The notes: generated from the letters alone by a model not told the origin. Counted from the first letter of the stretch, positions 9,232 through 55,440 are shown. The stretch is DNA of 64,000 nt from an uncultured Gammaproteobacteria bacterium (GCA_964521295.1 CAZFRF010000001.1:270146-334145), one strand, 5' to 3'. Made by a program: numbers and translations.

Positions 9232-9235
9232 CAAA

Positions 9236-22099: not shown

Positions 22100-24675
22100 T
22101 TTTTATAAATACTTATTTCAACAGGGCTTTGAACAATCGCAGCCATATAGTAGTTTAAATCATTTGTAAACAGAAATAAATATTTAAAATTAGGAGAAAA
22201 TTCTTTTATCAATTTATATTTATTTTTCTGTAAATTTTTATATATATCTTTTGTTTCTGAATTATGTTTATACATAGATTCAATACCAACGTTAGTTAGA
22301 ATTACATATTCAGGATAGGTTTTATCACTTGTTTGTATTATTTTGTATTTATATTTATTATTATTCTCGATCTTATACTGCTTAAAATAAAACTCTTTAA
22401 CAACCAAGTCTGGCAACCCTTGATAAATTGGAATATTTTGTATTCCAATTGTAGAATTTATTGGAATATTTTTATTTATCCAATACGTTGATGATTGACG
22501 AGGATCACTAAATAATTTTAGAGGCATCCATGAAAATGATTCAACTACCTGGAGAAGGATAATGAAAATTATAAAAATTAGAATTAACAAGTTATTAAAT
22601 CTTTTCAACAAAAACTTAATAAGATAACTAACAAAATATGCAAAAAATGGAATTAAAATTAATACTCGATTATTTGTAGCATCTAATTTTAAAGGAATTA
22701 AGCTACAGGCAAATAAAATAAAAATTATAATAAAAGTAATTAATGTTCTATTTTCAAAAATATATCTATATTTATTTTTTAAAATAAATATGTTTCCTAG
22801 TAAAATAGAAATAAAAAGAATCATACCTAAAATTGCAATAATATAAAAAGTATGACTAAAAAGAGTAGGAAATAAATCTATTAATAAATAAGGCCAAATT
22901 TTGTTTGTAATTTGAAAATTTGCCACATTAAAATCTGGTGTCCTAGATAAAGTAGATGAAAGATATTCATTTAAACTACCCTTAGCCAAAAGAATATCTA
23001 TGACTCCGAAAGATAAAAAAGTGGATATATATATCACTCCTCCCTTTATAAGAGTAAAGATATGACTTCTCCAATTTTTATTAAAAATAAATATTAATCC
23101 TAATATCGGAATAAGCGCAAAAGGTGAAAGCTTTACGGATAAAGCCAAGGCGGATAATAAACATGCAAAGTAAAAATAATAATACTTAAATTCTTTTACG
23201 TATTTCAGAATAAATAGTATTGATAATAATGTCCAAAACATTAAGGCAATATCGTACTTAAAATACCCACTTAACATTAGCCACATAGGATTAAAAGTAA
23301 AAAAGAAGGTTGAGATCACTGGATTAATTTTTAAAATTTTTTTAGATAAATAATAAAACGCAAGAATACTTAATATTCCAAACAAAATAGTATTTGTACG
23401 CAAAACAATAAATAAGACCTGTTGAATATCAATGTTTAATACAGATGATTTGATTAAAAAAGGATTTACGACTTTTATTACCATAAACGGAATTAAATAT
23501 AAACCCGTTAAGAAAAAATGGAATATTGATCCATTTGCGGAGCCAGAAATATTTGGAGAACCAAATTTAAATAAGTTTCTTACTGACTGACTTTGATGCC
23601 ACTCATCCATAAAGTAATTAAAAGGATGACTATTTCCAGGAATTCCCCAACTAATCTGCGCCAGGCAAGCCCCAATGTAAATTAATAAAATAATTAAAAG
23701 CATTCTTTGCTTAAACAGTTTTCTTGTTAATAAATTAAAATTTACACCTACAAAAAACGCCTTAACTGTTCCAGACAAAACAGCAAAATCTGCAATAAAT
23801 TGAATCAGCGGCAAAAATATTAAACCTTTAATATTTTTTACATATTTATAATTTTTAAGAATTATCCAGAACAAATAAACTATCGCCCCTCCAGTAATCA
23901 ATAAATTTAGATACAATGATTTCATAATTGGAATCAAAATTACTAAATAGAGAGCAATAAAATATCTATAAATAAGCCAAAAAACTTTTTCTCTAATAAT
24001 ACCCGACTCAATATCTCCATATGCAAATCTATAAAACATTTTAAAAGCTGATTTTATATTAGATCTAGGTTGCCAATAGACAATCGCGTTTTGAATAAAT
24101 TTAATATTAAAACCTTCGTCCTTTATTTTGTTTGCAAACACATAATCTTCATTGTGGGAATATTTAACATCAAAGCCCCCAATACTCGACCATACTTTTT
24201 TCCTTAAAGCCATTGATCTTGTAGCAGGTAAAAAAGTGTTTGGATCCACTTTATCTGGCATAACCAATGCATATGGTATTAATGACTTTTGAAAAATACT
24301 TGCATGTTTCCCTTTATAATATCCAGCAACAACATCTACATTTGGAGAAAAAGATGAATACATATTTTTTACCCAATCTTTATGAAGCTCACATCCAGAA
24401 TCAGTAATTAGTATAATCTCAAATTTTGATTTTTTAATCGCTAAATTTCTACCTAAAGACCGATTCCCTTTTTTAACAAAAAATTTGATATTTAATTTTT
24501 TATGTTTCGAAGAAATTTCTTGGATTTTATTAACAGTTTTATCATTACTTCCCCCGTCAACAATTATAATTTCCGATGGTAATAGTGTCTGCTTGACTAC
24601 AGACTCTAAAAACCTACTAACTGTATCCTCTTCGTTTAAAACAGTACAAATTAATGAACATTTAGCCTTAGCCAT
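22096..24675 (-). CDS. Fusion protein: N-terminal GT2 glycosyltransferase plus large C-terminal polytopic membrane domain
   Basis: N-terminal CSLICTVLNEEDTV, IIIVDGGSNDKT, ITDSGCE, NEDYVF are GT2 motifs. About 15 TM helices and a Lys/Tyr-rich soluble tail follow. 859 aa. Same architecture as 14042-16255. Confidence 0.7.
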   Translation of the reverse strand: MAKAKCSLICTVLNEEDTVSRFLESVVKQTLLPSEIIIVDGGSNDKTVNKIQEISSKHKKLNIKFFVKKGNRSLGRNLAIKKSKFEIILITDSGCELHKDWVKNMYSSFSPNVDVVAGYYKGKHASIFQKSLIPYALVMPDKVDPNTFLPATRSMALRKKVWSSIGGFDVKYSHNEDYVFANKIKDEGFNIKFIQNAIVYWQPRSNIKSAFKMFYRFAYGDIESGIIREKVFWLIYRYFIALYLVILIPIMKSLYLNLLITGGAIVYLFWIILKNYKYVKNIKGLIFLPLIQFIADFAVLSGTVKAFFVGVNFNLLTRKLFKQRMLLIILLIYIGACLAQISWGIPGNSHPFNYFMDEWHQSQSVRNLFKFGSPNISGSANGSIFHFFLTGLYLIPFMVIKVVNPFLIKSSVLNIDIQQVLFIVLRTNTILFGILSILAFYYLSKKILKINPVISTFFFTFNPMWLMLSGYFKYDIALMFWTLLSILFILKYVKEFKYYYFYFACLLSALALSVKLSPFALIPILGLIFIFNKNWRSHIFTLIKGGVIYISTFLSFGVIDILLAKGSLNEYLSSTLSRTPDFNVANFQITNKIWPYLLIDLFPTLFSHTFYIIAILGMILFISILLGNIFILKNKYRYIFENRTLITFIIIFILFACSLIPLKLDATNNRVLILIPFFAYFVSYLIKFLLKRFNNLLILIFIIFIILLQVVESFSWMPLKLFSDPRQSSTYWINKNIPINSTIGIQNIPIYQGLPDLVVKEFYFKQYKIENNNKYKYKIIQTSDKTYPEYVILTNVGIESMYKHNSETKDIYKNLQKNKYKLIKEFSPNFKYLFLFTNDLNYYMAAIVQSPVEISIYKK

Positions 24676-24722
24676 ATTGTGGTTGAATTATAGCACCTCC
24701 TACATTAGAATACAGAGATATT

Positions 24723-26582
24723 ATGGGATTCATTAATTCTTTATTTACTAATATAATTCAGAATTTTAATTATGTAAAAAATGATTTTACGGGATTTAAT
24801 TTAGATATTAGTTTTATACTAAATTTTATTTTCAATTTAATCGTAACAGTAATTATATTTAATCTAACATATTTATTTGGAAAGAAAATATTTTCATTAT
24901 TTAATAAAAACTTTGAAAGTAAACCATACTCTTATCTTGTCTCAATTGGAATAGGATATATTTTTTCATCATTAGGAATTACCTTACTCGGCTTCTTTCA
25001 TTTGCTTTACCCTCAATTAATCTCAATCTATCTTTTATGCATTATTTTTATTTCATTTTTTCCATTTAATAATTTAAAAAAAACATTTTTTGAATTATTT
25101 ATATATATTAAAAATGAAATTATCTATTTCAAGCAATTTAAGGCAATTTTTATTGTTGCTTTTCTTTTTATTTTACTCGGATTTATTAATCTTATTAATC
25201 CCGAATACAGAGAAGATCAATACCATGTTGACTTACCAAGGCAGTATTTAAAATTTAACACAAATATGATTCCACCAAAGGAACAACTACATGTTTCAGC
25301 AGCTCCTCAAACCGCAGAATCGTATTATTTAATTGGAATATTTTTATTATCTAAAGAAGCAGCTAGATTTTTACATTTTTACTTTTATTTACTAACAATC
25401 TTAGCATTGATAAACTATTCAAAAATAAGCAGTAAATATAAATTTGCTATCTATACACCTCTACTATTAGTAAGCAGTCCTGTCATTATTAAAGAAACCT
25501 CATCCATGTATACAGACTTCCAATGGCTCTTCTGCTTACTCATTTCAACTTTAATATTAATTGATCAGTATAAAAATAAATTAGCTACTTATTCATTGTC
25601 TGGATTATTCTTTGGTGGCATAGTTGCTTCAAAACTCTGGACAATTATATTTTACCCAGTGTTCATTATTTTTCTTACTTTTCTAAATAAATTTAAAAAA
25701 ATAACAATTAAATATATAGTATTATTTATTTCTTTTTCTCTTGTTACGTATGGAATTTGGATAATAAGATCATATATTTTAACAGGTAATCCGTTATATC
25801 CAGCATTTATTGATCATCTAAATCTTGATGGGACAAGAGAGAAAATAAATTTGTTTCAGTATATTGGAATAAATTATGGGTTACTTAATCCAAAGTATTT
25901 TATAAATGTATTTTCTCCTTTGTTTTTTGTTGGAATATTATTTTGTATTTTAAATTTCAAAAACATTTATAAAAAAATAAATCTATTACAAATTAATAAA
26001 ATAATTTTCATCACGTTTATTACATATTTACTAGTCCAATATATCTTTGGGAGATATATGATTGGACTCTATATTTTCTTAATCTTCATTTCCGCTCTTT
26101 CAATTAATGAGTTTGTTAAAAAAAATAAATTACTAAACGCTGTTTTAATATTTATGCCAATAATTGTATTTATTTATTATTTTATAAATTCTTTTTTAAT
26201 ATTGCCCTACTCGCTTGGCTTCAGCGATAAAAATAATTATTTAACGCGAATTTTAATAAGAGATAATTCAAGTTATTTTGATTTTGGGAAACAGTTTAAT
26301 AAATATATAAAAAGTGATGATGTTGTTGGATTCTATAATTTCCATGGGTATTATTATGCAGACTTTCAATATACTGATGTAAATTTTTTAATTAATAAGA
26401 GAGAACAGTCGATTCTGACATTGAAAAAAAATGGCATAAAATTATTAATATTAAGAGGTGATAATTTTAAATTTTTCTGTAAGAAATATTCACTAAAAGA
26501 TTGTGATACATATCAACCCAAACTTATTTCGCAATATAATTTCTTTCCTTTCATATTTTTATATTCTTTTAAGAATTTATGA
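24723..26582 (+). CDS. Polytopic membrane protein (possible GT-C-like), function unknown
   Basis: 619 aa, more than 12 hydrophobic helices with a C-terminal soluble region. Lies inside the glycosylation locus. No motif identified. Confidence 0.4.
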   Translation: MGFINSLFTNIIQNFNYVKNDFTGFNLDISFILNFIFNLIVTVIIFNLTYLFGKKIFSLFNKNFESKPYSYLVSIGIGYIFSSLGITLLGFFHLLYPQLISIYLLCIIFISFFPFNNLKKTFFELFIYIKNEIIYFKQFKAIFIVAFLFILLGFINLINPEYREDQYHVDLPRQYLKFNTNMIPPKEQLHVSAAPQTAESYYLIGIFLLSKEAARFLHFYFYLLTILALINYSKISSKYKFAIYTPLLLVSSPVIIKETSSMYTDFQWLFCLLISTLILIDQYKNKLATYSLSGLFFGGIVASKLWTIIFYPVFIIFLTFLNKFKKITIKYIVLFISFSLVTYGIWIIRSYILTGNPLYPAFIDHLNLDGTREKINLFQYIGINYGLLNPKYFINVFSPLFFVGILFCILNFKNIYKKINLLQINKIIFITFITYLLVQYIFGRYMIGLYIFLIFISALSINEFVKKNKLLNAVLIFMPIIVFIYYFINSFLILPYSLGFSDKNNYLTRILIRDNSSYFDFGKQFNKYIKSDDVVGFYNFHGYYYADFQYTDVNFLINKREQSILTLKKNGIKLLILRGDNFKFFCKKYSLKDCDTYQPKLISQYNFFPFIFLYSFKNL

Positions 26583-28324
26583 TAACACCATATAAATTAG
26601 TATTCATAAACCTGTTATTTTTAATTTTTTTAACTTTGCTTATTTTTATATTCAAAATAATTTTTCCAAAAAAGAAAGTTAACCCTTTATTTTTACTTTT
26701 ATTATTAAGTCTAGGTACATCAATTAGCATATTACGCATTGGCTCATATGAAAGTGGGGATTTCAATATACATGCCTACAGGTCCATTGAATTCTATAAA
26801 AATATCCTTGAAGGATTCATTTATCCTTCTTGGGCAGGAGACTTAAACGCATTATATGGTTTACCATTATTTATGTTTAATTATACTTTACCTTACTACT
26901 TTACAACGATCGCGCACCTTATAGGATTTTCATTTATTAATTCGTTAAAATTTTTTCTAATTACTAATTTAGTATTAACAAGTTTATTTAGTTATATTTT
27001 AGGATTAACAGTATTTAATAATAACAAGTTGCATGCATTTGTATTTGCAATCTTATATTCTTTTTTTCCTTATCATCTGATTTCTGTGCATTATAAGATC
27101 ACACTTGGTGAAATATCTTCCTATACATTACTTCCTTTATTTTTTTATTTTGTCTCACTAACTAATAAAACTAAAAAAAATATATTTCTTATACATTCAT
27201 CGTTAATTTATTATTTTATATTTATTAGTCATATTTTCATAGCAATTTTTACTATTCCACTATTGTTCTCATATTTATTTATAAATGGCAATGATAAATT
27301 AAGAAATTTAATCAAATTTTCTTTTATAGTGATTTTTTCATTAACATTATCAGCATACCAATGGGTACCAAGTATTTTATTTCAATCTCAACTTTATATA
27401 ACACATATTAATATAGATCTAAACAACATATTCTTCCCATCAATCATCGATCTACTATATTCGCCTTGGAGATTTGGTTTTTTATTTCAAGGGCCAAACG
27501 GAGAAATATCTTACTTACTCGGTTACACTCAAATAGCATTAATTTTAATTACGATAATTTTTATATATAAACGTAGATTTTTAAATTTTGAAAAAAAACA
27601 AATATACTTTTGGCTTATTTTTTTCGTTTTATATTTATTTCTACTACTCCCTCAATCTAAACTATTTTGGGACTTTATACCTATATTGGGTGGCTCTGGA
27701 CCACATAGACTACTAGTTATTATGGGTTTAATAACAACTTTTATCTGCTCTATTACAATAAGTAAAATAAAAAATAAAAAAGTAATTTACTTAATAATAT
27801 TATTTGCTATAGGATCAACCATTTTAAACTGGGGACATAGAAAAGTTATACCCGAAATAAACGATGAATATTTAATAAAAACTCTTCCTCTTAGCACTTA
27901 TAATATAGACAATCATTTTTATGCAGCTACAATTTATCAAAACCCAAAAAAGCTATGGGAAAATATGATTCCAATTAATTCATTTCAACCGAACGAATCA
28001 ATTTCTTCCATTATTATCAAAAGATCTCAAAATGAACATATATATAAAATGTCTGTGAAATACAATACAATCGTAAGTGAAAATACTTTATATTTTCCTG
28101 GATGGAATGTATATGCAAATAATAATAAATTAAAAATTTACCCAAATAATAAGGGGCACATTTCTTTTGCTATTAATAAAGGAGAATATATTGTTTTAAT
28201 TAAATATGAGGATGTTTATATTATCAGCTTACTTAAAAAAATAAGTTTATTTTTATTTATAGCATCTCTACTCACCATAGTCCTTATTAAAATTAAATCT
28301 TCCAAAGTTTTATATAAACATTAG
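26579..28324 (+). CDS. Polytopic membrane protein (possible GT-C-like), function unknown
   Basis: 581 aa, more than 12 hydrophobic helices plus a C-terminal beta-rich domain. Translationally coupled to the upstream gene (4-bp overlap). Confidence 0.4.
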   Translation: MITPYKLVFINLLFLIFLTLLIFIFKIIFPKKKVNPLFLLLLLSLGTSISILRIGSYESGDFNIHAYRSIEFYKNILEGFIYPSWAGDLNALYGLPLFMFNYTLPYYFTTIAHLIGFSFINSLKFFLITNLVLTSLFSYILGLTVFNNNKLHAFVFAILYSFFPYHLISVHYKITLGEISSYTLLPLFFYFVSLTNKTKKNIFLIHSSLIYYFIFISHIFIAIFTIPLLFSYLFINGNDKLRNLIKFSFIVIFSLTLSAYQWVPSILFQSQLYITHINIDLNNIFFPSIIDLLYSPWRFGFLFQGPNGEISYLLGYTQIALILITIIFIYKRRFLNFEKKQIYFWLIFFVLYLFLLLPQSKLFWDFIPILGGSGPHRLLVIMGLITTFICSITISKIKNKKVIYLIILFAIGSTILNWGHRKVIPEINDEYLIKTLPLSTYNIDNHFYAATIYQNPKKLWENMIPINSFQPNESISSIIIKRSQNEHIYKMSVKYNTIVSENTLYFPGWNVYANNNKLKIYPNNKGHISFAINKGEYIVLIKYEDVYIISLLKKISLFLFIASLLTIVLIKIKSSKVLYKH

Positions 28325-29324
28325 TCACTTCCTCCCATGTCAAAAGAATCTTGGAAGCACTTGAATAATTCAATATATCTTTATTTAATAAATATTTTTT
28401 TATAGAATTTGAGACTTGATAACTGTCTTTACATATAAATATGTTTTTGCTGAATGGCGTCATCTCTAAATAATCTTTTTTAATTTCGTTATTATACACA
28501 GCGAAAATAGGTTTTTTGGCAGCTAATGCCTCAAGTATTCCTAAATACCTAGAAACAAATACATATGAATAGTTGGGTAAAAATTTTTCAACATTATATA
28601 CAAATCCTTTAAAGGATACGTTTAATTTATGTCTTTTAACAAATCTAAAAGCATTTTTAAATTGTTCACCATTCCCATATACATCTAGACTTAGTTCATT
28701 ATTTTCATCTTTTAATATTTTTATCGCTTTCAAATAATCCATTATTCCAGCTTCCTCTTCTAATCTACCAATATACATTACTTTATTTGAAAATTTGATT
28801 TTACTGTTATTAAATTTTTGCTTTTCTACTCCTCCAAAAATAACGAAAGTTGGATTTGTTTTATACCATTTTTTAAAAAAATCTCCTACACATATATTTC
28901 CTCTTGAAAGTTTTTCCGCAAGTTTATGCATAAACTTCGCTTTTAAGTTTGGGATATTATTCCCCTCATAACCGTGAAAAGTTGTATAGATTTTTTTATT
29001 AAAAAATAAAAATCTAAATGGTAAATACCAATAGAAAACATCATGACAATGTACAATATCTGCTTGTCTTATTTCGTTCAGGTATTTAAATAAATTTATC
29101 CAAATAATAAACTTTTTAAGCTTATTCTCTTTTATTGAAGGTATGAAAATTACCTCCTCACCATTATTGTGTAGGTTTAATTTTTTATTATTGACTACAG
29201 GTTCTTCGGCAATAATTTTAACTGAGTATCCTTTTTTAATTAATTCTTTACTAATTTGCCAAATATGCTTTTCTACTCCTCCAATATTTGGATAATAAGA
29301 TCTTGTTAAAAATAAAATTTTCAT
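28293..29324 (-). CDS. Glycosyltransferase family 4 (GT-B fold)
   Basis: N-terminal MKILFLTRSYYPNIGGVEKH is a typical GT4 N-terminal donor-substrate loop. 343 aa. Confidence 0.7.
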   Translation of the reverse strand: MKILFLTRSYYPNIGGVEKHIWQISKELIKKGYSVKIIAEEPVVNNKKLNLHNNGEEVIFIPSIKENKLKKFIIWINLFKYLNEIRQADIVHCHDVFYWYLPFRFLFFNKKIYTTFHGYEGNNIPNLKAKFMHKLAEKLSRGNICVGDFFKKWYKTNPTFVIFGGVEKQKFNNSKIKFSNKVMYIGRLEEEAGIMDYLKAIKILKDENNELSLDVYGNGEQFKNAFRFVKRHKLNVSFKGFVYNVEKFLPNYSYVFVSRYLGILEALAAKKPIFAVYNNEIKKDYLEMTPFSKNIFICKDSYQVSNSIKKYLLNKDILNYSSASKILLTWEEVTNVYIKLWKI

Positions 29325-29371
29325 ATCCAGATTCTAACACAATCTAAGAAGCTAAAGAAGATAAAAAATCA

Positions 29372-29995
29372 TTATTCTGTTATTTTCTCGATTCCCTCAG
29401 GAGACTCTATTTCAATTGAATTTAAACAAGAATTGTATTTTCCAGTTACTATAACTAAATTGTTCGAAAATTTATAAAAATCGACGTCCTTATTATAAGG
29501 GAGATAGATTGCTTGATCTGATGAATCTGTTAACAAAACTGTTCGTTTTGTTATTTTCTTTTGTGGAGTAGAAATTATATTTAATACATAATCGACAGGT
29601 CCAACCCTATCTGTATATATTTCCCTAAAATTCAAGATTTTTACATATCCCAAAATACTTTGAGTTCCTTTTTCACAAATAACTTTATTTCCGCCAAATA
29701 ATCCAAAAACAGACAGAAACATTAATACACCAGCTATACCTAAACTTCCTTTAAACGTAAAACTAAATGCTTTTTGTTTTTTAATTTCCTCAAGTAGTTC
29801 AATAACTCTTCTTAATGGATTTCCAATTCTTATATCTAATAAATCGTCCTCGTCTTTATAGTTACCTGTATGACTATAAATAAATTTTTCTAAAGGATTT
29901 TTTGCTGATTTATAATCTGGAGCGCTAATAAAATGGCCTTTTTCGTCTCTAGGTCTACTCTTTGTCACTTCACTTCTTAATTTATCAGCAGACAT
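29372..29995 (-). CDS. Hypothetical membrane-anchored protein
   Basis: 207 aa ORF with one central TM helix (LGIAGVLMFLSVFGLFGG). No recognisable domain. Confidence 0.4.
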   Translation of the reverse strand: MSADKLRSEVTKSRPRDEKGHFISAPDYKSAKNPLEKFIYSHTGNYKDEDDLLDIRIGNPLRRVIELLEEIKKQKAFSFTFKGSLGIAGVLMFLSVFGLFGGNKVICEKGTQSILGYVKILNFREIYTDRVGPVDYVLNIISTPQKKITKRTVLLTDSSDQAIYLPYNKDVDFYKFSNNLVIVTGKYNSCLNSIEIESPEGIEKITE

Positions 29996-30033
29996 AATTA
30001 ATTATGAATATATATCATTACAAAAATCAAGTG

Positions 30034-30105
30034 TGGACTTGAGAGGATTTGAACCTCTGACTTTTTCAATGTGAATGAAACGCTCTACCCCTGAGCTACA
30101 AGTCC
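30034..30105 (-). tRNA. tRNA-Val (anticodon CAC)
   Basis: The reverse complement folds as a cloverleaf. Acceptor GGACTTG/CAAGTCC, D-arm GCTC-AGGGGTA-GAGC, anticodon stem TTTCA/TGAAA with loop TTCACAT (anticodon CAC), T-arm AGAGG-TTCAAAT-CCTCT, discriminator A. Confidence 0.85.
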
Positions 30106-46730: not shown

Positions 46731-47837
46731 CTAGACAAATATTCTACTAATTTCATTAATTTTATCTATACGTAGATGTTGCTCATCATTACTAAGTACT
46801 GCGCTTTGCTCTAATAATATTCGTCTATAAAGGTCTTCATATCGTCTACCCATAACTTTTTCATTAAAATTTTTCAAGGCATATTCTCTGCAATATTTCC
46901 TATCAATTTTATCTAAATTTAAAATTGCCTCCATCATTTCCTGATCATCTTTTACAACATATCCTGTTTTTCCATTTTCCATAACTTCTGATATGGAACC
47001 ATTATCAAAAGCCACTACTGGACACCCACAAGCCATTGCCTCAATCATTGTTAAGCCAAATGGCTCTCTCCAAGTTATTGGATTAATAAGACAGAGAGCC
47101 TCACTCATTAGCTTATTTCTCTCCTTTGTATCTACTTCCCCTATCCATTTAACCTGACCGTTATAAAGTCGAGGTTCAATATATTCTTTAAAATATTGCT
47201 CGTCTACTTTATCTACCTTGGCGGCAATTATTAAGGGAATATTTAGTGCTTGTGCAACATCAATTGCAATATGTGTTCCTTTAATTAAAGATATTCTTCC
47301 AACATATAAAATATATCCCTTTGAAATTGCACCAAATGGATACTTTTTAAGTTCTAAACCATTAGGAATCGTCTCAACGTGCTCAATATTTTTAGCATAT
47401 TTTATTTGATCTTTTGAAATAGAAACGTAATAGGGGTTTTTAAATGTTTCAATCAGTTTTTGCGTACTCGGCTTTAATAAACCATGTAAAGTAATTACAG
47501 TCGGCGTCTTGGATAAATTACCAAGTGGAGCACCATACGTTAGGTTATGATCATGAATTATGTCAAATTTATCTTGCATATCATAAACTTTCCCACTATG
47601 AATAGCGCTTAATTCATAACCCATGCTAGTATCTACTCTGGCTTCTCTTAAAGCTCTGGGATAAAAACCTTCCAGTTTTGCTTGGGTGATTGAATCTTTT
47701 GTCGCAAAAAGAGTGACATCATGCCCTCTTCTTACTAGCTCCTCAGTAAGAGTACTGACCACTCTTTCCGTTCCACCATATTTTTTGGGGGGAACTCTTT
47801 CAACTATTGGGGCGATCTGAGCAATTCTTAATTTCAT
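46731..47837 (-). CDS. Glycosyltransferase family 4 (GT-B fold)
   Basis: EPFGLTMIEAMACGCPVVA...G...E GT4 signature. N-terminal GGTERVV loop. Confidence 0.8.
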   Translation of the reverse strand: MKLRIAQIAPIVERVPPKKYGGTERVVSTLTEELVRRGHDVTLFATKDSITQAKLEGFYPRALREARVDTSMGYELSAIHSGKVYDMQDKFDIIHDHNLTYGAPLGNLSKTPTVITLHGLLKPSTQKLIETFKNPYYVSISKDQIKYAKNIEHVETIPNGLELKKYPFGAISKGYILYVGRISLIKGTHIAIDVAQALNIPLIIAAKVDKVDEQYFKEYIEPRLYNGQVKWIGEVDTKERNKLMSEALCLINPITWREPFGLTMIEAMACGCPVVAFDNGSISEVMENGKTGYVVKDDQEMMEAILNLDKIDRKYCREYALKNFNEKVMGRRYEDLYRRILLEQSAVLSNDEQHLRIDKINEISRIFV

Positions 47838-47906: not shown

Positions 47907-49217
47907 TTAATCGTATTTAAGTAAATCTAAAAGCGCTGCTGCGGACCAAGCCTGAATTCTGCAACTTTCTTGACCATAATCTGAACGATATGGCAAATAT
48001 TCACCACTAACACTTTTAATATATAGCTCAATAGGTGTACCAAAATATTGCATGGGCTTTAAAGATGCATCTTTTAAAATTAATGCCTCTTTGGCAAATC
48101 CCCACTTCTCTAATCCTTCATGAATCATTCCGTTTAATTTTGGCCAAAAACTTCCATTGTGATATGAATTAAAACTAGGATTGAATGTGGGTGAAGTAGA
48201 GCTCATGGTTCTAATTCCCGCATCTTTGTCAAACAAATCAGACATAAAAGATCTAGAAACAAGATACGAAACGTATCTTTTGTCTAAAATAGATTCAACT
48301 TCTTCTCCATTAATATAACTTGCCCATAATAAGAGTAATGGGTTACCTGTTATTGTTTTTATTTGATTTTTTTTACCATCTAAAGCTTGAGAAGGAAAAA
48401 GCTTGCCATTGTCATTAAACAGAAAAGCTTGGTTAAAAACTTTTTTCATATTCTTTGCTTTTTCCGAAAGCTCCAAATGAAACCTAGATGAAGGACTTTG
48501 TAATGGGTTATTTTTATAAAAATCTGCCCATAATTTAAGCGATAACCAAGCATAGCCCTGCACTTCAACTGGAGCAATAGGATAATCAGGAAAATGTCCT
48601 TCGCTATTTTGCAAGGACATTACTGAGTCTGTCCATGACTGAACTCTTAAACCACCGTGCTGTCTTAGACTTGGTAGTTCATATTCCAAAAGCTGATCAT
48701 TATCCATGTCACCAAAATTCTTAATCCAAACCAAGCCTTTTTCTACAGCTGGTAAAACTGTTAATAAGAATTCATTATCATTAAAAATTTGATAATACTT
48801 ATACAAAGCAATTAAAGCTAAGGGAGTTGAGTCTATTGAATCATAATTTCTTAAAATTCCATCATTGTATACGTACCATGGCTTTGGTCTATTAATAAGT
48901 CTTTCATACTTATCCTTTCTAAATTCATGAATAAATTTTCCAGGTTCTTCTCCGCTTTCCCTATTGATTTGCTTTCCTTGCAAAGCAATTAATTTAATTA
49001 ACGAATTTCTAACAATAGCTTGTAGTCTTTTGGTATCAACGCCATTAATATTGGGATGAGTTTCCAAGAGCCTTAATATCTTAAGACATGTTACAGCAGA
49101 ATCTCTACCAAAAATGCACCCGTAAACTTCTCCTTTGGAGGAAGCGTAGATACCTTCTTCTGTGGAGAGCTCTAGGAGAGAATTATATGCAATATTTCTT
49201 AAATCAATAAATCCCAT
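47907..49217 (-). CDS. Glycoside hydrolase, (alpha/alpha)6-barrel amylo-alpha-1,6-glucosidase (GDE_C)/GH63-like
   Basis: IFGRDSAVT and GEEPGKFIHE motifs resemble GDE_C family signatures. 436 aa, catalytic barrel only. Confidence 0.55.
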   Translation of the reverse strand: MGFIDLRNIAYNSLLELSTEEGIYASSKGEVYGCIFGRDSAVTCLKILRLLETHPNINGVDTKRLQAIVRNSLIKLIALQGKQINRESGEEPGKFIHEFRKDKYERLINRPKPWYVYNDGILRNYDSIDSTPLALIALYKYYQIFNDNEFLLTVLPAVEKGLVWIKNFGDMDNDQLLEYELPSLRQHGGLRVQSWTDSVMSLQNSEGHFPDYPIAPVEVQGYAWLSLKLWADFYKNNPLQSPSSRFHLELSEKAKNMKKVFNQAFLFNDNGKLFPSQALDGKKNQIKTITGNPLLLLWASYINGEEVESILDKRYVSYLVSRSFMSDLFDKDAGIRTMSSTSPTFNPSFNSYHNGSFWPKLNGMIHEGLEKWGFAKEALILKDASLKPMQYFGTPIELYIKSVSGEYLPYRSDYGQESCRIQAWSAAALLDLLKYD

Positions 49218-49384
49218 TAGAAATCTTATTCCAATCTATCAATCTAAGAAATGTGTGTCAACTAAATTAATGGCCTATATAAATTTTCTTACTGAAGTTT
49301 TACTTTTCTTTATTATTATTTACAATGAGAACATAAGATTTAAGTTCTCTGTCTTAAAACTCGGAATGTCCCAATTCACTTTTA

Positions 49385-50191
49385 TCAAGATGCAGCCCTA
49401 CTTCCAAGTACGGACTTAGATAATGCTTGATATTGCTCCTCTGTTAAAGGATCAGGAAGGACATCAACCTCCCGCGCTATTCTTCCATTCCTAATTGTTC
49501 CGCCCCGCTTAGCATCAAAGCGAAAAATTCCATGCTCTAGCTGAAACCGTCTTATATATTCCTCATACAATCTATACAATGTAGGGGCTTTGGTCTCTTC
49601 ACCTTCTTCTCTTTTACAAGCAATTAATTCTGCTGTAAGCCCATTAACTGCATGTCTAGCTTGATCGGGGGTTAATTTTTCTCTTGAAAAAGATAAATAA
49701 AATTCCCAACTTCTTGGATTTATTACCCCCACTATTTTTGTTTCACCTGTTAAAAGATCCTGCATGTCGCCAGCCCTTAAAGGCTCTGCTAGTGGATGCA
49801 CGCTGCCAAACCACTTATTAATCGTGGATCCATAACCTCTTTCTCTATATGCATGTAATACCACCAATCGACCCTTTGCCCCTTCCGCCAACTCCTTATT
49901 CACTGGATTAGTAGTTATTGGACCGGGAATAATTTCACCAGCTTCTGAAACATCAATTGCCTGTTCCATATCTCGACTATTTCTACCCTGATTATCATGC
50001 CAAAGTTCAGATGCCAGATTGCGACAAATTCCCCTTAAAGGTCCTAATCTTATTTCTGTAAATCTAGCAAGAGCCCCTGGGCTAGATTCGCCAAAAAAAA
50101 TACCAGCTAATGCTGGTATTGAAATAGCGCTGCCGGCTTTTTGCCGTTCTAAAGGCGGAATAAATATTTCTCTTTCTCGTAAAATTGCCAC
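49385..50191 (-). CDS. Hypothetical protein, compositionally atypical (GC-elevated)
   Basis: 268-aa uninterrupted ORF with visibly higher GC than its neighbours. Arg/Glu/Gly-rich. No recognisable domain. Confidence 0.4.
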   Translation of the reverse strand: MAILREREIFIPPLERQKAGSAISIPALAGIFFGESSPGALARFTEIRLGPLRGICRNLASELWHDNQGRNSRDMEQAIDVSEAGEIIPGPITTNPVNKELAEGAKGRLVVLHAYRERGYGSTINKWFGSVHPLAEPLRAGDMQDLLTGETKIVGVINPRSWEFYLSFSREKLTPDQARHAVNGLTAELIACKREEGEETKAPTLYRLYEEYIRRFQLEHGIFRFDAKRGGTIRNGRIAREVDVLPDPLTEEQYQALSKSVLGSRAAS

Positions 50192-50298
50192 TTTATGGAT
50201 AGTAACAAAACAAAAAATATGTTGTCAAGAGATAAGTTTTAATCTAATTCATAGATCTTAAAAATGCGGTAATTTATAAAACAAAATCCTTTAGAAGA

Positions 50299-50700
50299 TT
50301 ATTTTCCTGCTTTGGGCCTATCTTTCATAGCTTGGAAACTTTCTTTGACAAGTTTTTTTACTAAGCTTTCTGGAATTTGCTTATCTTCTAAGCAACTAAT
50401 ATCTCCTGCCCCAAGCTTATATTCACTAAGCTTGTTTTTGTTATTTACAATAACTTCAGGATATATATGTAGGCGAATATATGGTTTTTTATAACTAAAC
50501 CAGGCAAACATTCCGTTATAGTAATAATCACCGTCATAGTGGTAGCCAGGAAACTGAAAATAACTTAATGTTTCTGTGGCATCGGGAACAACTTGCCTAA
50601 TCGCAGCCCTTATATGCTTGAGTTTATCTTGAACTTCAACAGGTTGATTTTTAATATATTCGTCTACTCCGCCTGGAACTATTTTTCGTTTCGTCGCCAT
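50299..50700 (-). CDS. DUF1801 (YdhG/YjbR-like) domain protein
   Basis: The N-terminal VDEYIKNQPVEVQDKLKHIRAAIRQVVPDATETLSYFQFPGY matches the DUF1801 consensus (VDEYI...P...Q..L..LR..I....P.A.E.ISY..P.F). Confidence 0.6.
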   Translation of the reverse strand: MATKRKIVPGGVDEYIKNQPVEVQDKLKHIRAAIRQVVPDATETLSYFQFPGYHYDGDYYYNGMFAWFSYKKPYIRLHIYPEVIVNNKNKLSEYKLGAGDISCLEDKQIPESLVKKLVKESFQAMKDRPKAGK

Positions 50701-50894
50701 GATTAAATTATACTAAGGAATAGTTAAGGTTACAAATCACAGATTTACAATCATATACAGGATTGTATCCATGGAGAGAATGTAATCATTTCTTTTGTCT
50801 GAGGAATGCTGGTATGTCCTAGGTATCCCTTGTTTCTAGCTTCAATAATTACCAAAAACACCTAATTGAAATATAACCTTTTTATTATTAGTTG

Positions 50895-51359
50895 TCAATT
50901 ATTATTAACTGAATTTTTCGCATATTGTTTTAACCTAAAGTGTAAAATATCGTCCTCAGACCTAACTTCTCCTAATAAGATTTTATTCATTATCTCATCA
51001 TCACCATCAAGCGATAATCCGGCCCTTTTTTCCGGAGCACTATAAACCTCTATTAAAAAATCAATAAATTCATTTTTAGATAAACTATTAACATATCTTT
51101 CATACTCCACATCATCTGGTTTTACAAACGGAATATGATCTTTTTTAGTCCTATATATCTTGTATGAAATATTCTTTTCTCTATATACTGATCCGTGACC
51201 TTCTATCTCATGTTTTTTTTCATGGCTATTTAATTCTGATTCATCAATTTCATCAAAATCATTTGTAATTAAGCTGGAATACTCTGTCATAAGTTCCTGA
51301 GGAGACATCTGGCTGTTTTTAAATTTTATATATAATCTTGCTACCCTAATATCTACCAT
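50895..51359 (-). CDS. Hypothetical protein, co-operonic partner of the TIR-like gene
   Basis: 154-aa acidic ORF lying 42 bp downstream of 51402-52319 on the same strand. No recognisable domain. Confidence 0.45.
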   Translation of the reverse strand: MVDIRVARLYIKFKNSQMSPQELMTEYSSLITNDFDEIDESELNSHEKKHEIEGHGSVYREKNISYKIYRTKKDHIPFVKPDDVEYERYVNSLSKNEFIDFLIEVYSAPEKRAGLSLDGDDEIMNKILLGEVRSEDDILHFRLKQYAKNSVNNN

Positions 51360-51401
51360 AATAAAATATCTAAAGTATTAAAATTTAAGTATATTTTAAA
51401 T

Positions 51402-52319
51402 TTAGCTTAATGCGGCTTCAAAATTAAACTTAAGTCCAGCATCCTTTAATTCCTTAGCAATATTCAATTTCCATTCACCGCTTTCATTAAAAGGTATGTA
51501 TAAAATACCCAATAAATCTGTTGGTAGTTCTGTATTTTCTTTGTATAATACACATACATTCTTTCTCTTAAGTTTTCCGACAAAAAATCCAAGTTCCATA
51601 ATTACATTTTGTCTAGCTCTTGGTTTGGCATTATCTGGCTTTTCATTTTTTTCAAATCCTATGTCATCCGGCGTTATCAATACGATTGCAAATCCAACAC
51701 CTTCAGAATAATGCTCTAATTTTTCAATTAGTGTTCGACCTCCATTAGTTTGCTCGTGTAAAATAATTGGGATTAGGCCAATGCTTCTAATATATCCTGC
51801 TACAGCTTCCTTTATTACTTCATCATGCCCATGAACGACAAATACCTCTTTATTTTTACCCTCTCCTGGATTCTCAATCGGTGATTGAGACTTGCTAATA
51901 TTATCTATAGATTCTGGAATCAAATCTAATCGCCTAATAATTGACTGTAAAGCATTTAGCTTAGCTCTCATGTCGTTTTTAAAGTTATAAATTGAATCTG
52001 AAACATCGCTAATCATAACCATAGACCCATATGAATTCCTAAATTCTTTTTTATATGCTTCATTGTCAAAAATCCTAGTTAGGTATTCTGAAATAAACTC
52101 AACCCATTGTTCCTTTTTATCCTCTGCAATTGAAACATCCTCCTCATTATTAAATTGGGAATTTTGAATTGTTTTGCCTTCTTCTAAAAGTTCTTCAAGT
52201 TTTCCTTTTGCATCCAACTTGGGAATAATTAATCTTGGCGGTGGTAATTGTGGAGATATTACTGTTCTTGCCATATATTTATTATACCACTTTGTTTTAT
52301 CAAACATCATGTCGCACAA
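51402..52319 (-). CDS. Two-domain protein: unknown N-terminal domain plus C-terminal TIR-like nucleotide-binding domain (COG4271 / CAP12-PCTIR-type)
   Basis: The C-terminal about 150 aa (about 51402-51850) read KEVFVVHGHDEVIKEAVAGYIRSIGLIPIILHEQTNGGRTLIEKLEHYSEGVGFAIVLITPDDIGF. This matches the hallmark VF(I/V)VHGHD...ILHEQ...G.T.IEK.E....FA.VLLTPDD.G of TIR-like domains. The listed start is a TTG; the ATG pair at 52305-52310 or the ATG at 52274 are more likely true starts. Confidence 0.6.
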   Translation of the reverse strand: MCDMMFDKTKWYNKYMARTVISPQLPPPRLIIPKLDAKGKLEELLEEGKTIQNSQFNNEEDVSIAEDKKEQWVEFISEYLTRIFDNEAYKKEFRNSYGSMVMISDVSDSIYNFKNDMRAKLNALQSIIRRLDLIPESIDNISKSQSPIENPGEGKNKEVFVVHGHDEVIKEAVAGYIRSIGLIPIILHEQTNGGRTLIEKLEHYSEGVGFAIVLITPDDIGFEKNEKPDNAKPRARQNVIMELGFFVGKLKRKNVCVLYKENTELPTDLLGILYIPFNESGEWKLNIAKELKDAGLKFNFEAALS

Positions 52320-52339
52320 TCCATATATTACGACATGGT

Positions 52340-52381
52340 TTTGAAGCTAAAATTATATTAAGAAAAATCACTTGAAGCTAG
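52340..52381 (-). promoter_or_regulatory. Candidate promoter/operator upstream of the TIR-like gene
   Basis: On the minus strand there is a TATAAT at 52352-52357 with a TTCAAG -35-like hexamer at 52371-52376 (13-nt spacer, suboptimal). A 9-bp direct repeat TTGAAGCTA sits at 52341-52349 and 52372-52380, 31 bp apart. A second extended -10 (TGGTATAAT, 52282-52290) lies just upstream of the ATG at 52274. Confidence 0.3.
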
Positions 52382-52427
52382 TGGAGAAATAAGTTTATAT
52401 TTTCAATCTTTACTATCTTTCAATTTA

Positions 52428-53096
52428 TTAACGTGGCATTACTCCATTTCCAGGCATAAAGGCTCTTTTTAAGAGCCCAAATCTAGAACCCGTAGTTTGC
52501 TTTTCCGTAACAGCTTCCCCAAAAGCAAATAAATTCATATCACTTATCTTACGAAGTTTATCCACTACGCGATCATTTTCTTGCGTTCTTAGATGGGTTA
52601 CGCCAGAAATTAAATTGGGCAATCTTACAAGTCCTGGGTATATATCTCTTGCAGATGTCATCTCTTCTGACCGAGGATACCAAATAAGTACCCTAGTAAC
52701 ATCTTCTCCTTTGCCATAACTTTCTAAAACACCCCAAAAATCATGTGGTTTTAAGTATTCAAATTTCCTTACCCCACCATCAGTTATAGGAAATAATGCT
52801 TCAGAATTAAAGCCAATTATTGTTCCATCCTGATAGGCAGATCCAACAAACTCTTCACCTTCTCCAAATCTTTTCAAAGGAGTAGCTCCGGCAATTTGTA
52901 GAAAATCTTTTAAGGCCTGTCTTGCTCTCGAGTCAGCACCCCATTCACCACGAACTGATATTCGAGATGGGGAATGTGGCTGTACAGGGCAATCATCGTC
53001 AAAACCATGATCATCCCAATGCTCAGGACTTCTAAAATCTCCTTTTCCAAATGATCGATATTCATTCATGTGGGGTATTATACCAAAAATAGTCAT
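52428..53096 (-). CDS. Hypothetical protein, compositionally atypical (GC-elevated)
   Basis: 222-aa uninterrupted ORF with elevated GC. Gly/Asp/Arg-rich. No recognisable domain. Lies 108 bp upstream of the TIR-like gene on the same strand. Confidence 0.4.
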   Translation of the reverse strand: MTIFGIIPHMNEYRSFGKGDFRSPEHWDDHGFDDDCPVQPHSPSRISVRGEWGADSRARQALKDFLQIAGATPLKRFGEGEEFVGSAYQDGTIIGFNSEALFPITDGGVRKFEYLKPHDFWGVLESYGKGEDVTRVLIWYPRSEEMTSARDIYPGLVRLPNLISGVTHLRTQENDRVVDKLRKISDMNLFAFGEAVTEKQTTGSRFGLLKRAFMPGNGVMPR

Positions 53097-53128
53097 CCTA
53101 AAAAAAATATTTATGCTAAAATCTTTGC

Positions 53129-53956
53129 GTGAGTATTAATCAAAATAATTTTGACAAAAAATATTATTACGAAATCTGCTTTGGCTCAGAAGACTTTAAG
53201 AAAAGCAAAGGATTAAAGGTTGCTCCTCGTGTAAAGAAAATGATTGACGATCTAAACCTTTCTAAATCCATGGATGTTTTAGAGATTGGCTGCGGAAGAG
53301 GAGATACGGCTCTATACATAGCAAAAAAAGTTAACTCGGTTACTGCAATAGATTACTCAAAAGACGGAATAAAAATTGCAAACAGTATCAAAAAGAATTT
53401 TCCTAAAAAAATTCAAGATAAAACTAAATTTTTTGTAATGGATGCAACAAAATTATCTTTTAAAAATAATTCTTTTGACTATGTAATCTTAATTGACACA
53501 ATTGAACACTTAAATACTAAAGAACAAATTAAAATGTTAAATGAAATACAAAGAGTCTTAAGACCTCAAGGAAAACTATATGTAAGAACATGTACAAATA
53601 AGATCTTAAATGATTTTACATATAAATATTATTCATATCCTTTAAATATATTTCTCACCTGGATTGATAAAATGATAAAAGGCGTTGATTACGAATCTTT
53701 ACCTAAAAATCCCAGAAATAAAGAGCAGAAAAAGCAACACATAAATGAATGTACATATTTTAGTCTTAAAGAGTTGTTTGCTAAAACAAATTTCAAAGGA
53801 AATATAAAGTCAGAAGTTGGATTATTAAAAGAAGGAATCTCCAGAAGAACTAAATTATATAATTTTGCAATTGCACTATTTCCAATTTCTAAATATTTTC
53901 CACTAAATATCTTTTTTACGTCTTCATTTAATTGCTATCTTCAAAAAGAAAAATAA
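53129..53956 (+). CDS. Class I SAM-dependent methyltransferase (small-molecule/UbiE-like type)
   Basis: Motif I VLEIGCGRGDTALYIA, motif post-I AIDYS, motif II/III FDYVILIDTIEHL. No N6/N4/C5 DNA-MTase motifs. Confidence 0.8.
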   Translation: MSINQNNFDKKYYYEICFGSEDFKKSKGLKVAPRVKKMIDDLNLSKSMDVLEIGCGRGDTALYIAKKVNSVTAIDYSKDGIKIANSIKKNFPKKIQDKTKFFVMDATKLSFKNNSFDYVILIDTIEHLNTKEQIKMLNEIQRVLRPQGKLYVRTCTNKILNDFTYKYYSYPLNIFLTWIDKMIKGVDYESLPKNPRNKEQKKQHINECTYFSLKELFAKTNFKGNIKSEVGLLKEGISRRTKLYNFAIALFPISKYFPLNIFFTSSFNCYLQKEK

Positions 53957-53993
53957 TATATGAAGTTTAGATTGATTTGATAATCTAATTTAG

Positions 53994-54011
53994 TTTTTTT
54001 GCATCAAAAAA
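53994..54011. terminator. Putative bidirectional AT-rich hairpin between convergent genes
   Basis: TTTTTTTGCATCAAAAAA forms an 8-bp stem with a 3-nt loop. It sits in the 66-bp spacer between the convergent methyltransferase (+) and DUF4177 (-) genes. The stem is weak and AT-only. Confidence 0.25.
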
Positions 54012-54022
54012 GCGGAAATATC

Positions 54023-54277
54023 TCAAATTTCTTTTGAAAAAGTGATAACTGCGGCTTCTCTAGTCCAGAAAAGTAGTAATCTACGTTTCTCTAATACCAT
54101 AAAATCCATATTCCACCCTTCTTCTCCATACTTATTCATTACTTCTTCCATTTTCTTAACGGGCATTTTACTACTTGCGACAAGAAGCGTACCTATCGCG
54201 CCTTCTTTAACAACCTCAACTTTATATTGCTTTTTTGCCATTAATAAAATAATCACACAACCAATAATGAATGTCAA
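54023..54277 (-). CDS. Small DUF4177-like protein
   Basis: QYKVEVV...GTLL....MPVKKMEEVMNKYGEEGWNMDFMV fits the DUF4177 pattern (YKV..V....G......LE..LN..G..GWEL). The start may be the internal Met (MAKKQYKV). Confidence 0.4.
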   Translation of the reverse strand: MTFIIGCVIILLMAKKQYKVEVVKEGAIGTLLVASSKMPVKKMEEVMNKYGEEGWNMDFMVLEKRRLLLFWTREAAVITFSKEI

Positions 54278-54303
54278 ATGTTTAAATCAAAAGTGGATGG
54301 CCT

Positions 54304-55440
54304 CTAATTCTTTTGCCTTAGGAACGCGGGAATGTCCCATGAATCATCCTCTTCCTCAACTTGTGGTTGTGGTTCTGGATTAGTTGATGGAACATTATTA
54401 TTCGTACTATTCATCCCTTGAGCCTGGGAAGAATTAACTAATGGCTCTGTAACTGTTGGTGTTACGAATTCCTTCATTACTTGTCTTGTGGAATCAAATC
54501 CAGTTGCAACAACAGTAATTTTTATTTGATCATGCATCGAATCATCGATTGTAGCTCCAAAAATAATGTTAGCGTCTGGATCTGCTGCTGAAGCAATAAT
54601 TTTAGCGGCTTCATCAACTTCATTCATAGTTAAATCTGGTCCACCGGTAATATTAAAGAGTACGCCTCTTGCTCCATCCATTGATATTTCTAAGAGTGGA
54701 GATGCAACTGCACTTCTTGCTGCAGTTTGTGCTCTGTTTTCCCCAACTCCAGTTCCAATTCCCATTAAAGCAGATCCAGCATTTGCCATAATTGTCTTAA
54801 CATCAGCAAAATCAACGTTAATAAGACCAGGCAGAGTAATAAGCTCAGAAATTCCCTGAACACCTTGAGTCAATACCGAATCAGCAACTTTAAAGGCTTC
54901 TAAAAGAGACAATTTTCTATCAACTACATCTAGTATTCTTTGATTTGGAATAACAATAAGGGTATCAACTTTATCTTTAAGCTCTTCGATTGCATCTTCT
55001 GCTGCAACCATTCTCCTTGTGCCTTCAAAAGCAAATGGTTTTGTAACTACAGCAACGGTTAACGCTCCTACTTCTTTAGCAGCTTTAGCAATAATTGGCG
55101 TAGCTCCTGATCCTGTTCCACCACCCATTCCTGCTGTTAAAAAGATCATGTCTGTTCCTTCAAGAAGTTCTTTTGCTTTTTCATAGGATTCTTCTGCGGC
55201 TTGCTTACCAATTTCAGGATTTCCACCAGATCCTAATCCCTTAGTCAAATTTTCACCAATTTGCAATTTGGTTGCTGCTTGATTTAATAAAAGACTCTGT
55301 GCATCTGTATTAACTGCAATAAAATCTACACCTTGAATATTTGAAGAGGCTATCATGGAATTTAAGGCATTACTTCCACCACCACCGATACCCATTACTC
55401 TGATTTTCGCAAAATTAGTTGTTTGTGGTTTAATAAGCAT
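54304..55440 (-). CDS. ftsZ: Cell division GTPase FtsZ
   Basis: [13 protein letters not shown] and the tubulin signature [18 protein letters not shown]. Pro/Gln-rich linker and the conserved C-terminal peptide DIPAFLR. Confidence 0.95.

Follow-up and report, generated by a model that had tools for sequence, protein, structure and literature searches.

Tyrosine integrases of genomic islands and prophages target the 3′ ends of tRNA or tmRNA genes, tandem island arrays included, and the composite islands of staphylococci, namely staphylococcal cassette chromosome (SCC) mec, pseudo-SCC and the arginine catabolic mobile element (ACME), sit at the 3′ end of rlmH (orfX). Here we describe an array of small gene modules at the 3′ end of ftsZ in a 64-kb stretch of AT-rich DNA (31.4% GC; hereafter the window, whose coordinates are used throughout). 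An original prediction, made from the sequence alone, had marked out an islet of five minus-strand open reading frames (ORFs) at 49385-53096. The best reading of this islet is that it belongs to a stack of small gene cassettes, ~5 kb in all, in the last codons of the ftsZ gene of a bacterium of the Candidate Phyla Radiation (CPR). We consider it likely that the stack arose by tandem site-specific insertion of gene modules at an attachment (att) site within the last ~35 nt of ftsZ, the codons of the C-terminal peptide. In this array and its relatives, the target-end repeats are directional, gene content varies between conserved flanks, modular cassettes are bounded by half-cores of the repeat, and a recombinase gene is carried by an autonomous-looking member.

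Copies of the ftsZ end and the variable interval behind it

The five ORFs were found at exactly the coordinates that had been claimed: ORF-A (49385-50191), DUF1801 (50299-50700), ORF154 (50895-51359), TIR (51402-52319) and ORF222 (52428-53096). When the DNA of a related locus, L001, was aligned to the window, the alignment overlapped itself over the last 30 nt of ftsZ, and from this overlap we searched for copies of the ftsZ end. A degenerate pattern of that end matched three minus-strand sites in the window, 54304-54336 (the real end), 53990-54022 and 50786-50818, with 0 expected by chance. A core hidden Markov model (HMM) of the ftsZ end was built from other loci only, with the window excluded, and its top five window matches, all on the minus strand, were the five proposed copies: 54303-54343 (E = 1e-11), 50788-50826 (E = 2.5e-7), 53988-54027 (E = 3e-5), 49340-49373 (E = 0.066) and 50256-50275 (E = 0.067). 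Each directly follows a stop codon, that of ftsZ, ORF154, DUF4177, ORF-A or DUF1801. The gene and the copies are as follows.

54304-55440, minus strand: ftsZ, the target gene; its last 33-40 nt (54304-54343) are the resident core copy (HMM from other loci, E = 1.3e-11)
53990-54022, minus strand: rem0, a displaced ftsZ-end copy reading DISAFLMQKN-stop, which abuts the DUF4177 stop codon (pattern with 2 mismatches, 0 expected; HMM E = 3e-5)
50777-50908, minus strand: the conserved arm together with the copy rem1 (nhmmer E = 2.3e-25 with a 19-copy arm HMM that includes the window copy; core HMM E = 2.5e-7)
50243-50275, minus strand: rem2, a degenerate ftsZ-end copy reading ITAFLRSMN-stop (E = 0.067 alone; position backed by the L001 alignment)
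49340-49373, minus strand: rem3, the terminal ftsZ-end copy (TGGGACATTCC-GAGTTTTAAGACAGAGAACTTAA; E = 0.066), within which, at 49356, the homology of the distal flank with locus L109 starts

Direct repeats had been reported as absent from the flanks of the islet, so the five co-oriented copies of the ftsZ 3′ terminus (54304-54343, 53990-54022, 50786-50826, 50243-50275 and 49340-49373) overturn that statement, and with it the proposed boundaries. The unit extends from about 49340 to 54303 and takes in a methyltransferase gene and a DUF4177 gene. It consists of four modules: M1 carries DUF4177; M2 carries the methyltransferase gene, on the opposite strand, with ORF222, TIR and ORF154; M3 carries DUF1801; and M4 carries ORF-A. 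The two GC-rich orphan genes that had been taken as delimiters do not have that role, as ORF222 sits within a module and the methyltransferase and DUF4177 genes are part of the array. Nor is the insertion mechanism invisible, as had been thought: the modules are bounded by the ftsZ 3′-end direct repeats, and one junction has a conserved arm that is widespread in related metagenomes. The same 5.2 kb was 100% identical in an independent run (L003), showing that the array is not an assembly artefact.

The position of rem2 is exactly that of the real ftsZ end of L001, and a promoter-like site of ORF-A (50228-50199), common to L001, follows it. At the place matching rem3, L109 has a strong core (E = 1.8e-6) and an arm; rem3 and the adjoining glycoside hydrolase (GH) flank probably represent the ancestral ftsZ end, now 5 kb from its gene. 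Across 670 kb of CPR loci we counted 46 ftsZ-end copies on the ftsZ strand and 0 on the opposite strand, and further displaced ftsZ ends were seen in L006, L008, L009 and L015.

The interval between ftsZ (stop at 54304) and the GH gene is a hypervariable locus, where three relatives whose FtsZ is 95-98% identical differ in gene content, each with a set of its own. The original prediction had suggested comparing gene order among relatives, and this comparison bore out its view of an accessory, horizontally exchanged segment, the same flanks enclosing other genes. In L109, a 110-kb contig, FtsZ is 97.6% identical in amino acids, and the dcw cluster and the flank of GH and GT4 glycosyltransferase genes are 88.6% and 86.8% identical in nucleotides; between ftsZ and GH lies a different 7-kb set composed of a CNNM/CBS gene, a methyltransferase gene, two small ORFs and a csoR-copA-DsbD/cupredoxin-HMA copper operon. 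The methyltransferase gene of that array is the window's own, at 82.7% nucleotide identity. In L001 (FtsZ 94.7% identical) the order murG-ftsQ-ftsA-ftsZ is followed straight away, 53 nt downstream, by ORF-A, and the match to the window DNA runs to the ftsZ stop (82.8%) and then jumps 4.06 kb to window position 50273. The breakpoints thus fall at the repeat, with the homology beginning in rem2 for L001 and in rem3 for L109, showing differently occupied sites in close relatives. The ftsZ gene of the window remains intact after insertion, being full length with a canonical C-terminal end and a product 94.7-97.6% identical to those of L001 and L109. Among species representatives of GTDB with FtsZ 51-87% identical, including a metagenome-assembled genome (MAG) of Candidatus Levyibacteriota, murG-ftsQ-ftsA-ftsZ was kept and nothing downstream of ftsZ matched the window.

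A CNNM/CorC-type gene (DUF21+CBS) is the first cassette after ftsZ in both L008 (7472-8602) and L109 (11202-12344), two loci otherwise only ~72% identical in nucleotides; it is followed by arm and core in L008 and directly by the methyltransferase gene in L109. Separately, a mini-insertion of 46-48 nt splits the ftsZ core in L006 (11072-11150) and in L085 (2765-2845; same sequence in L103, 759-839). Its layout is ...GACATCCCC, break, GCCTTCCTTCGCCAAAAGAACTAG ACGAAGTTCGGCGAGGCAAGGCCC, break, GCATTTCT...TAA, with its own AFLRQKN-stop and a stem rich in G+C that spans the stop codon. The insertion resembles an empty cassette or a scar left by recombination.

The arm, cassette ends and a candidate recombinase

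In the MAG L008 a displaced ftsZ end follows the CNNM gene, and its likeness to the window copy after ORF154 extends far beyond the peptide codons. Common to both are TTGACA-17-TATATT, TTAGGTGTTTTTrGTA, a loop with a start codon, and GAAGCTAGAAA; an exact 33-nt pattern shared by the two (0 expected by chance) supports the arm independently of the arm HMM. Read along the minus strand, the window arm has the promoter-like site TTGACA-17-TATATT (50898-50870), a 9-bp inverted repeat (TGTTTTTGG, 50860-50852; CTAGAAACA, 50839-50831), a TTG start (50845-50843), KLET codons and an in-frame TAG (50821-50819), downstream of which rem1 runs from GAC to TGA (50818-50786).

A scan with the exact pattern found the arm at 25 metagenome loci and in no viral contigs, and nhmmer recovered 38 distinct copies in CPR metagenomes. 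All arm copies are co-oriented with ftsZ and placed between cassettes, and wherever a contig reaches far enough upstream, ftsZ is found there on the strand of the arm. Single contigs hold 6-8 co-oriented copies between units of 1-3 genes, units with cargo on the opposite strand included. A start codon (TTG, ATG or GTG) followed by KLET in frame into the core was scored in 12 of the 38 distinct copies, with one further intact copy missed by parsing, and ~7 of those 12 are an exact 19-codon ORF composed of M-KLET-x4 and the FtsZ C-terminal peptide. The window copy has its in-frame TAG and the L008 copy is frameshifted. By the layout of the arm, any half-core exchange would reconstitute the 19-codon ORF automatically. 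The 9-bp inverted repeat pairs in 90% of cells; the arm DNA folded no better than shuffled sequences, and Rfam gave no match at gathering threshold across the window, with only noise at E ≤ 10 in the arm region (50700-50950).

Further promoter-like TTGACA sites (10/12 matches, with TG extension) occur at 54249-54277, directly after the ftsZ stop and before DUF4177, and at 49233-49261 before the GH gene; it seems that every module or flank comes with a promoter of its own. Repeats of the type TCCTTCG...ACTCAGGA, 25-80 nt long, were also seen in the arm hairpin loop or between core halves (L085, 3610-3675, 4899-5043 and 6350-6500; L091, motif-oriented, 690-775), and these may be a second, nested family of small repeats.

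Cassettes shared between loci show where the units begin and end. The AbrB-Doc cassette, which comes straight after ftsZ in L088 and behind an arm in L091, starts with the core right half, GCATTyyTAmGGCArAAGAACTAA, and the NYN cassette of L085 and L101 ends in the arm and the core left half, GTCTGGGACATCCCCG. Partial copies fall into a left-only class, with the arm up to CCCG followed by unrelated DNA, and a right-only class, with unrelated DNA followed by CCNGCATT...TAA, which together place the crossover near the boundary of CCC and GCA.

A candidate enzyme came from L107, where a unit with a tyrosine recombinase (PF00589, E = 2.7e-35) and two helix-turn-helix genes lies between the ftsZ end and the arm. 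The enzyme is of a Xer-like kind, and its scores against the curated models of XerA and of integron integrases fall far short of the cut-offs. In L015, between ftsZ and a displaced ftsZ end, lies a fragment 48% identical to it. Of an integrase gene at one end of the element, L107 thus has a whole copy and L015 a fragment, and no relative of the L107 enzyme was detected in the window. Neither the arm nor the L107 recombinase has close relatives in the viral contigs of IMG/VR, leaving a phage origin of either without evidence. The 7.4-kb contig L106 has an arm at 199-292 and, at 1826-7369, a 910-aa protein and an ORF (5975-7369) that by eye resembles a large serine recombinase; this contig may represent a mobile element of another sort, one that carries the arm or makes use of it.

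These observations suggest the following mechanism. Judging from the shared cassettes, the 5′ end of a cassette would be a replacement ftsZ terminus, the core right half GCATTyyTAmGrCArAArAAyTAr encoding AFLRQKN-stop, with the cargo next; in the best-preserved family the 3′ end would be the ~100-nt arm ending in the core left half (GTCTGGGACATCCCC). Cassettes would recombine as circles with the ftsZ core, and a crossover near CCC and GCA would restore the C-terminal peptide, keep FtsZ intact and displace the previous terminus downstream. Repeated insertion would build a ladder of co-oriented ftsZ-end copies, in which the newest cassette adjoins ftsZ and the ancestral terminus adjoins the GH flank. 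The recombinase would probably be the Xer-like tyrosine enzyme of autonomous members such as L107, with the fragment in L015 as a trace of it. As no relative of this enzyme is detectable in the window, its modules are classed as non-autonomous, which would be cassettes mobilised in trans, or as fossils. What we infer, and do not read off directly, are the chemistry of recombination, the exact point of crossover and mobility at the present day.

Several points weigh against site-specific insertion. A full arm is present at only 1 of the 4 window junctions. Taken singly, rem2 and rem3 score poorly (E ~0.07), and the case for them comes from where they lie and from the relatives; the window copies have diverged to 71-79% identity with the resident end, so the insertions here are not recent. 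The absence of an integrase, claimed in the original prediction, held in a limited form: no relative of the L107 recombinase was detectable in the 64 kb by tblastn and phmmer, a search narrower than a domain scan of all window ORFs. Neither circular nor excised forms were seen. The seed of the arm search was an exact pattern from two copies, which biases ascertainment toward conserved arms. The inverted repeat has no covariation beyond shuffles, which leaves the recognition of the repeat unexplained. Finally, the methyltransferase gene common to the window and L109 has no cores at its ends, suggesting that deletion or homologous exchange also reshapes the array.

One might suppose from this last point that the segment is a flexible island kept only by homologous recombination in its flanks, ftsZ and GH, and that the ftsZ-end copies are incidental debris. 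The flanks of close relatives, which are 87-89% identical in nucleotides and enclose different content, and the methyltransferase gene shared without cores are what such exchange would give. We nevertheless regard this as improbable, because it leaves unexplained the five co-oriented window copies and the strand bias of 46 to 0 across loci, as well as the cassettes that start or end at half-cores, the conserved arm at the junctions of unrelated arrays and the recombinase-bearing unit.

The co-oriented sites, the cassettes of 1-3 genes and the cargo of toxin-antitoxin pairs and defence genes would also suit a true integron, in which the inverted repeat of the arm is an attC-like site folded from a single strand and an IntI-type integrase is encoded elsewhere in the genome. 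The best NCBIfam match of the L107 recombinase is even a model named 'tyrosine recombinase/integron integrase', but at 143 bits against a cut-off of 220, and the IntI models score the enzyme at 86 bits against 265 and at 75 against 435. Membership of the integrons fails on the integrase, as no integrase gene divergently adjoins the platform, which here is ftsZ itself. The attC sites of integrons are not conserved in sequence, whereas the arm is, its 9-bp repeat shows no covariation beyond shuffles, and many junctions have the ftsZ core only and no arm. An integron in the strict sense is therefore quite improbable.

A reading to which we give equally little credence takes the arm as an independent small gene or a promoter/leader, producing a 19-residue mimic of the FtsZ C-terminus or driving the next gene, so that its nearness to ftsZ would be functional and not historical. 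The −35 and −10 sites are conserved, well-preserved copies start with TTG, ATG or GTG and nothing else, and the in-frame ORF with the FtsZ C-terminal motif is kept in the 12 of 38 scored copies. On the other hand, the ORF is interrupted by the TAG in the window and the frameshift in L008 and is broken in most copies; the orientation of the arm stays the same where the gene that follows lies on the other strand; and arm-less ftsZ-end copies and half-core cassette starts remain unexplained. Peptide differences that are synonymous only would be expected just as much of real ftsZ ends that were displaced recently. The two readings are not exclusive, and the arm may serve at once as a gene or leader and as the arm of a recombination site.

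Cargo genes and base composition

The cargo of the four modules and the distal flank are listed below.

54023-54277, minus strand: M1, an 84-aa DUF4177 protein (PF13783, E = 1.9e-7, above the gathering cut-off)
53129-53956, plus strand: M2, a class I S-adenosylmethionine methyltransferase of small-molecule type, on the strand opposite to the array
52428-53096, minus strand: M2, ORF222, of an uncharacterised family
51402-52319, minus strand: M2, a 305-aa TIR protein with a C-terminal CAP12/Pycsar-type TIR domain and a PDC-S35 match
50895-51359, minus strand: M2, ORF154, a singleton ORFan that finds only itself among 5.8 billion clusters
50299-50700, minus strand: M3, a 133-aa DUF1801 protein (PF08818, E = 1.9e-8, above the gathering cut-off)
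49385-50191, minus strand: M4, ORF-A, 268 aa, rich in A, G, R and P, without family matches; directly after ftsZ in L001 and absent from L109
46731-49217, minus strand: the distal flank, a GDE_C-type GH (47907-49217) and a GT4 glycosyltransferase (46731-47837), whose proteins are 92.9% and 95.4% identical in L109

The labels DUF1801 and TIR given in the original prediction agree with Pfam and PADLOC (E = 1.9e-8 and, for PF10137, E = 7e-39). The spacers of 107, 194, 42 and 108 bp are, as it had said, longer than elsewhere: the ftsZ-GH interval differed from the 46 spacers outside it (median 3 bp) with p = 0.0017 by the Mann-Whitney test. It was also right that no tRNA gene lies near the islet; those of the window are at 9160 and 30033 only.

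The TIR protein matches the PDC-S35 model PDLC05005 over its full length (E = 4.9e-73, residues 38-302 against 4-261 of 264 profile positions), and also PF10137 (E = 7e-39), PHROG 16442 (E = 2.5e-65) and the Cap12 structures 7un8 and 9lmq (E = 1e-5). By analogy with the biochemistry of CAP12/Pycsar TIR effectors it would likely act by NAD+ depletion and is a candidate anti-phage effector. In the cyclic-oligonucleotide-based (CBASS) and pyrimidine cyclase (Pycsar) anti-phage systems a cyclase is encoded next to the effector, whereas the window TIR gene has no cyclase or other partner nearby: neither a CD-NTase nor a pyrimidine cyclase was found beside it, and the neighbouring ORF222 and ORF154 had no PADLOC or Pfam matches. 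PDC-S35, which the protein matches at full length, is in PADLOC only a candidate single-gene defence system, and we found no mention of it in a full-text literature search.

ORF222, whose real start is probably M10 at 53069 (213 aa), does not count as a true orphan. A profile search collected 46 representatives with invariant W27, H30, C36 and H168; ORF222 itself had no Pfam, NCBIfam, PHROG or PADLOC match, and none of 34 family members had a Pfam match. Against the PDB the family profile gave a marginal match only, to the primase-polymerase pRN1 ORF904 (E = 0.005), which is a lead only. A linkage of ORF222 with TIR was rejected, as its closest homologue (61%, the only close one) is not beside a TIR gene in L002; there (113-1782) it lies between a 253-aa ORF, by eye a metallo-beta-lactamase/beta-CASP-type RNase, and a small probable membrane protein. 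For ORF-A the 5.8 billion clusters held one homologue, with 84% identity, on L001, and for ORF154 there were no Pfam, PADLOC, NCBIfam or PHROG matches. AlphaFold2 models from 2-sequence alignments were not usable (predicted confidence pLDDT 30 for ORF222 and 38 for ORF-A). The cargo of related arrays includes MazE/AbrB-Doc pairs, a DUF4926/DUF6883 pair, NYN proteins, methyltransferases and many orphans rich in A, G, R and P.

That the two outer ORFs are GC-richer than their surroundings is real and yet not exceptional: ORF-A has a GC content of 0.415 (z = 2.1) and ORF222 one of 0.393 (z = 1.6) against a window gene mean of 0.320 ± 0.045, and ftsZ and ftsA are similar, both at 0.383. The excess lies wholly in codon positions 1 and 2. 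At the third position (GC3), ORF-A (0.253) and ORF222 (0.224) are host-like (0.228 ± 0.029), and synonymous codon usage is mildly atypical only in ORF-A (z = −1.8) and DUF1801 (z = −2.1). The rise in GC comes from proteins rich in A, G, R and P, not from a mutational bias brought from elsewhere; composition thus gives no evidence that the genes are foreign, and the earlier argument from compositional deviation to horizontal acquisition fails. A structured RNA behind the rise was ruled out by the coding-type distribution of GC over codon positions and by the empty Rfam result there, and a relationship between ORF-A and ORF222 was rejected (BLASTP E = 22). Had GC and codon usage within the normal range been taken literally as grounds for giving up the islet, as was offered, it would have been wrongly dismissed. 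A composition-based detection of islands would have missed or dismissed the region, because its cassettes circulate among equally AT-rich genomes, and this calls for caution in scanning.

Orphans rich in A, G, R and P, with high GC at positions 1 and 2 and normal GC3, recur in other arrays (L103, 6642-7385 and 8170-8478; L101, 4112-5062 and 5269-6195; L088, 1207-1854), without detectable sequence similarity to the window orphans at 49385-50191 and 52428-53096. Elsewhere in the window, a ~20-kb block at 10500-30000 has a GC content of 0.22-0.30 against 0.30-0.38 in the rest; it begins ~1.3 kb from tRNA-Thr (9160-9232), is bounded near tRNA-Val (30033-30105) and could be another accessory region, for example of surface-polysaccharide genes.

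The host-like GC3 and mostly host-like codon usage, together with the individual weakness of rem2 and rem3, would fit an ordinary lineage-specific cluster with no history of insertion, its GC set by amino acids and its repeats by chance, but this is hardly credible given that the genes are missing at this position in relatives with 95-98% identical FtsZ, that three copies have a chance expectation of 0 and that the arm matches with E = 2e-25.

Significance and comparison with known systems

CPR bacteria (Patescibacteria) have tiny genomes, and how they acquire accessory genes is little understood. The locus is a recurrent, directional insertion site in the codons of the essential and highly conserved FtsZ C-terminal peptide, a role that tRNA gene ends play elsewhere. 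Defence candidates, toxin-antitoxin pairs, metal-resistance operons and orphans accumulate there, with turnover among genomes whose FtsZ is 95-98% identical. The core and arm HMMs and one candidate recombinase provide a handle on the flexible gene pool of uncultured CPR bacteria. A full-text literature search brought up no account of either an ftsZ-end attachment site or CPR cassette arrays, which is not proof of novelty. A bolder proposal, which we hold to be doubtful, is that CPR bacteria of the Microgenomates type own an undescribed integron-like capture platform with an ftsZ-peptide att site, an Xer-like recombinase and an arm that re-forms a 19-codon ORF for a free FtsZ C-terminal peptide; by competing with FtsZ for FtsA, this peptide could tie cassette carriage to cell division.

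Compared with sedentary chromosomal integrons, the ftsZ arrays likewise have short cassettes between co-oriented recombination sites, with the newest apparently beside the platform, and a cargo rich in toxin-antitoxin pairs, defence candidates and orphans. They differ in having no IntI and no attI/Pc platform, in junctions that are sequence-conserved copies of the ftsZ end where attC is defined by structure, and in a promoter-like site of its own at each complete junction.

With the SCC islands they share insertion in the last codons of a conserved protein gene that is not inactivated, and composite arrays with direct repeats of the integration sequence as their boundaries, in which many modules have no recombinase of their own. 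SCC uses the large serine recombinases CcrAB or CcrC, whereas the only enzyme associated with the ftsZ arrays is the Xer-like tyrosine recombinase; SCC modules are tens of kb in size, and the host phylum and the target gene differ.

The islands in tRNA and tmRNA genes resemble the ftsZ arrays in that the element carries a replacement for the 3′ end of its target and the displaced original becomes the distal direct repeat. The target stays functional, reuse of the reconstituted site gives tandem arrays, and the integrase lies near one end, as in L107. Unlike in those islands, the target here is no RNA gene but the end of the coding sequence of an essential protein, the units are tiny (0.3-3.2 kb, 1-4 genes) and mostly without an integrase, and they have in common an arm of ~100 nt with a promoter-like site and a start codon that reads into the core.

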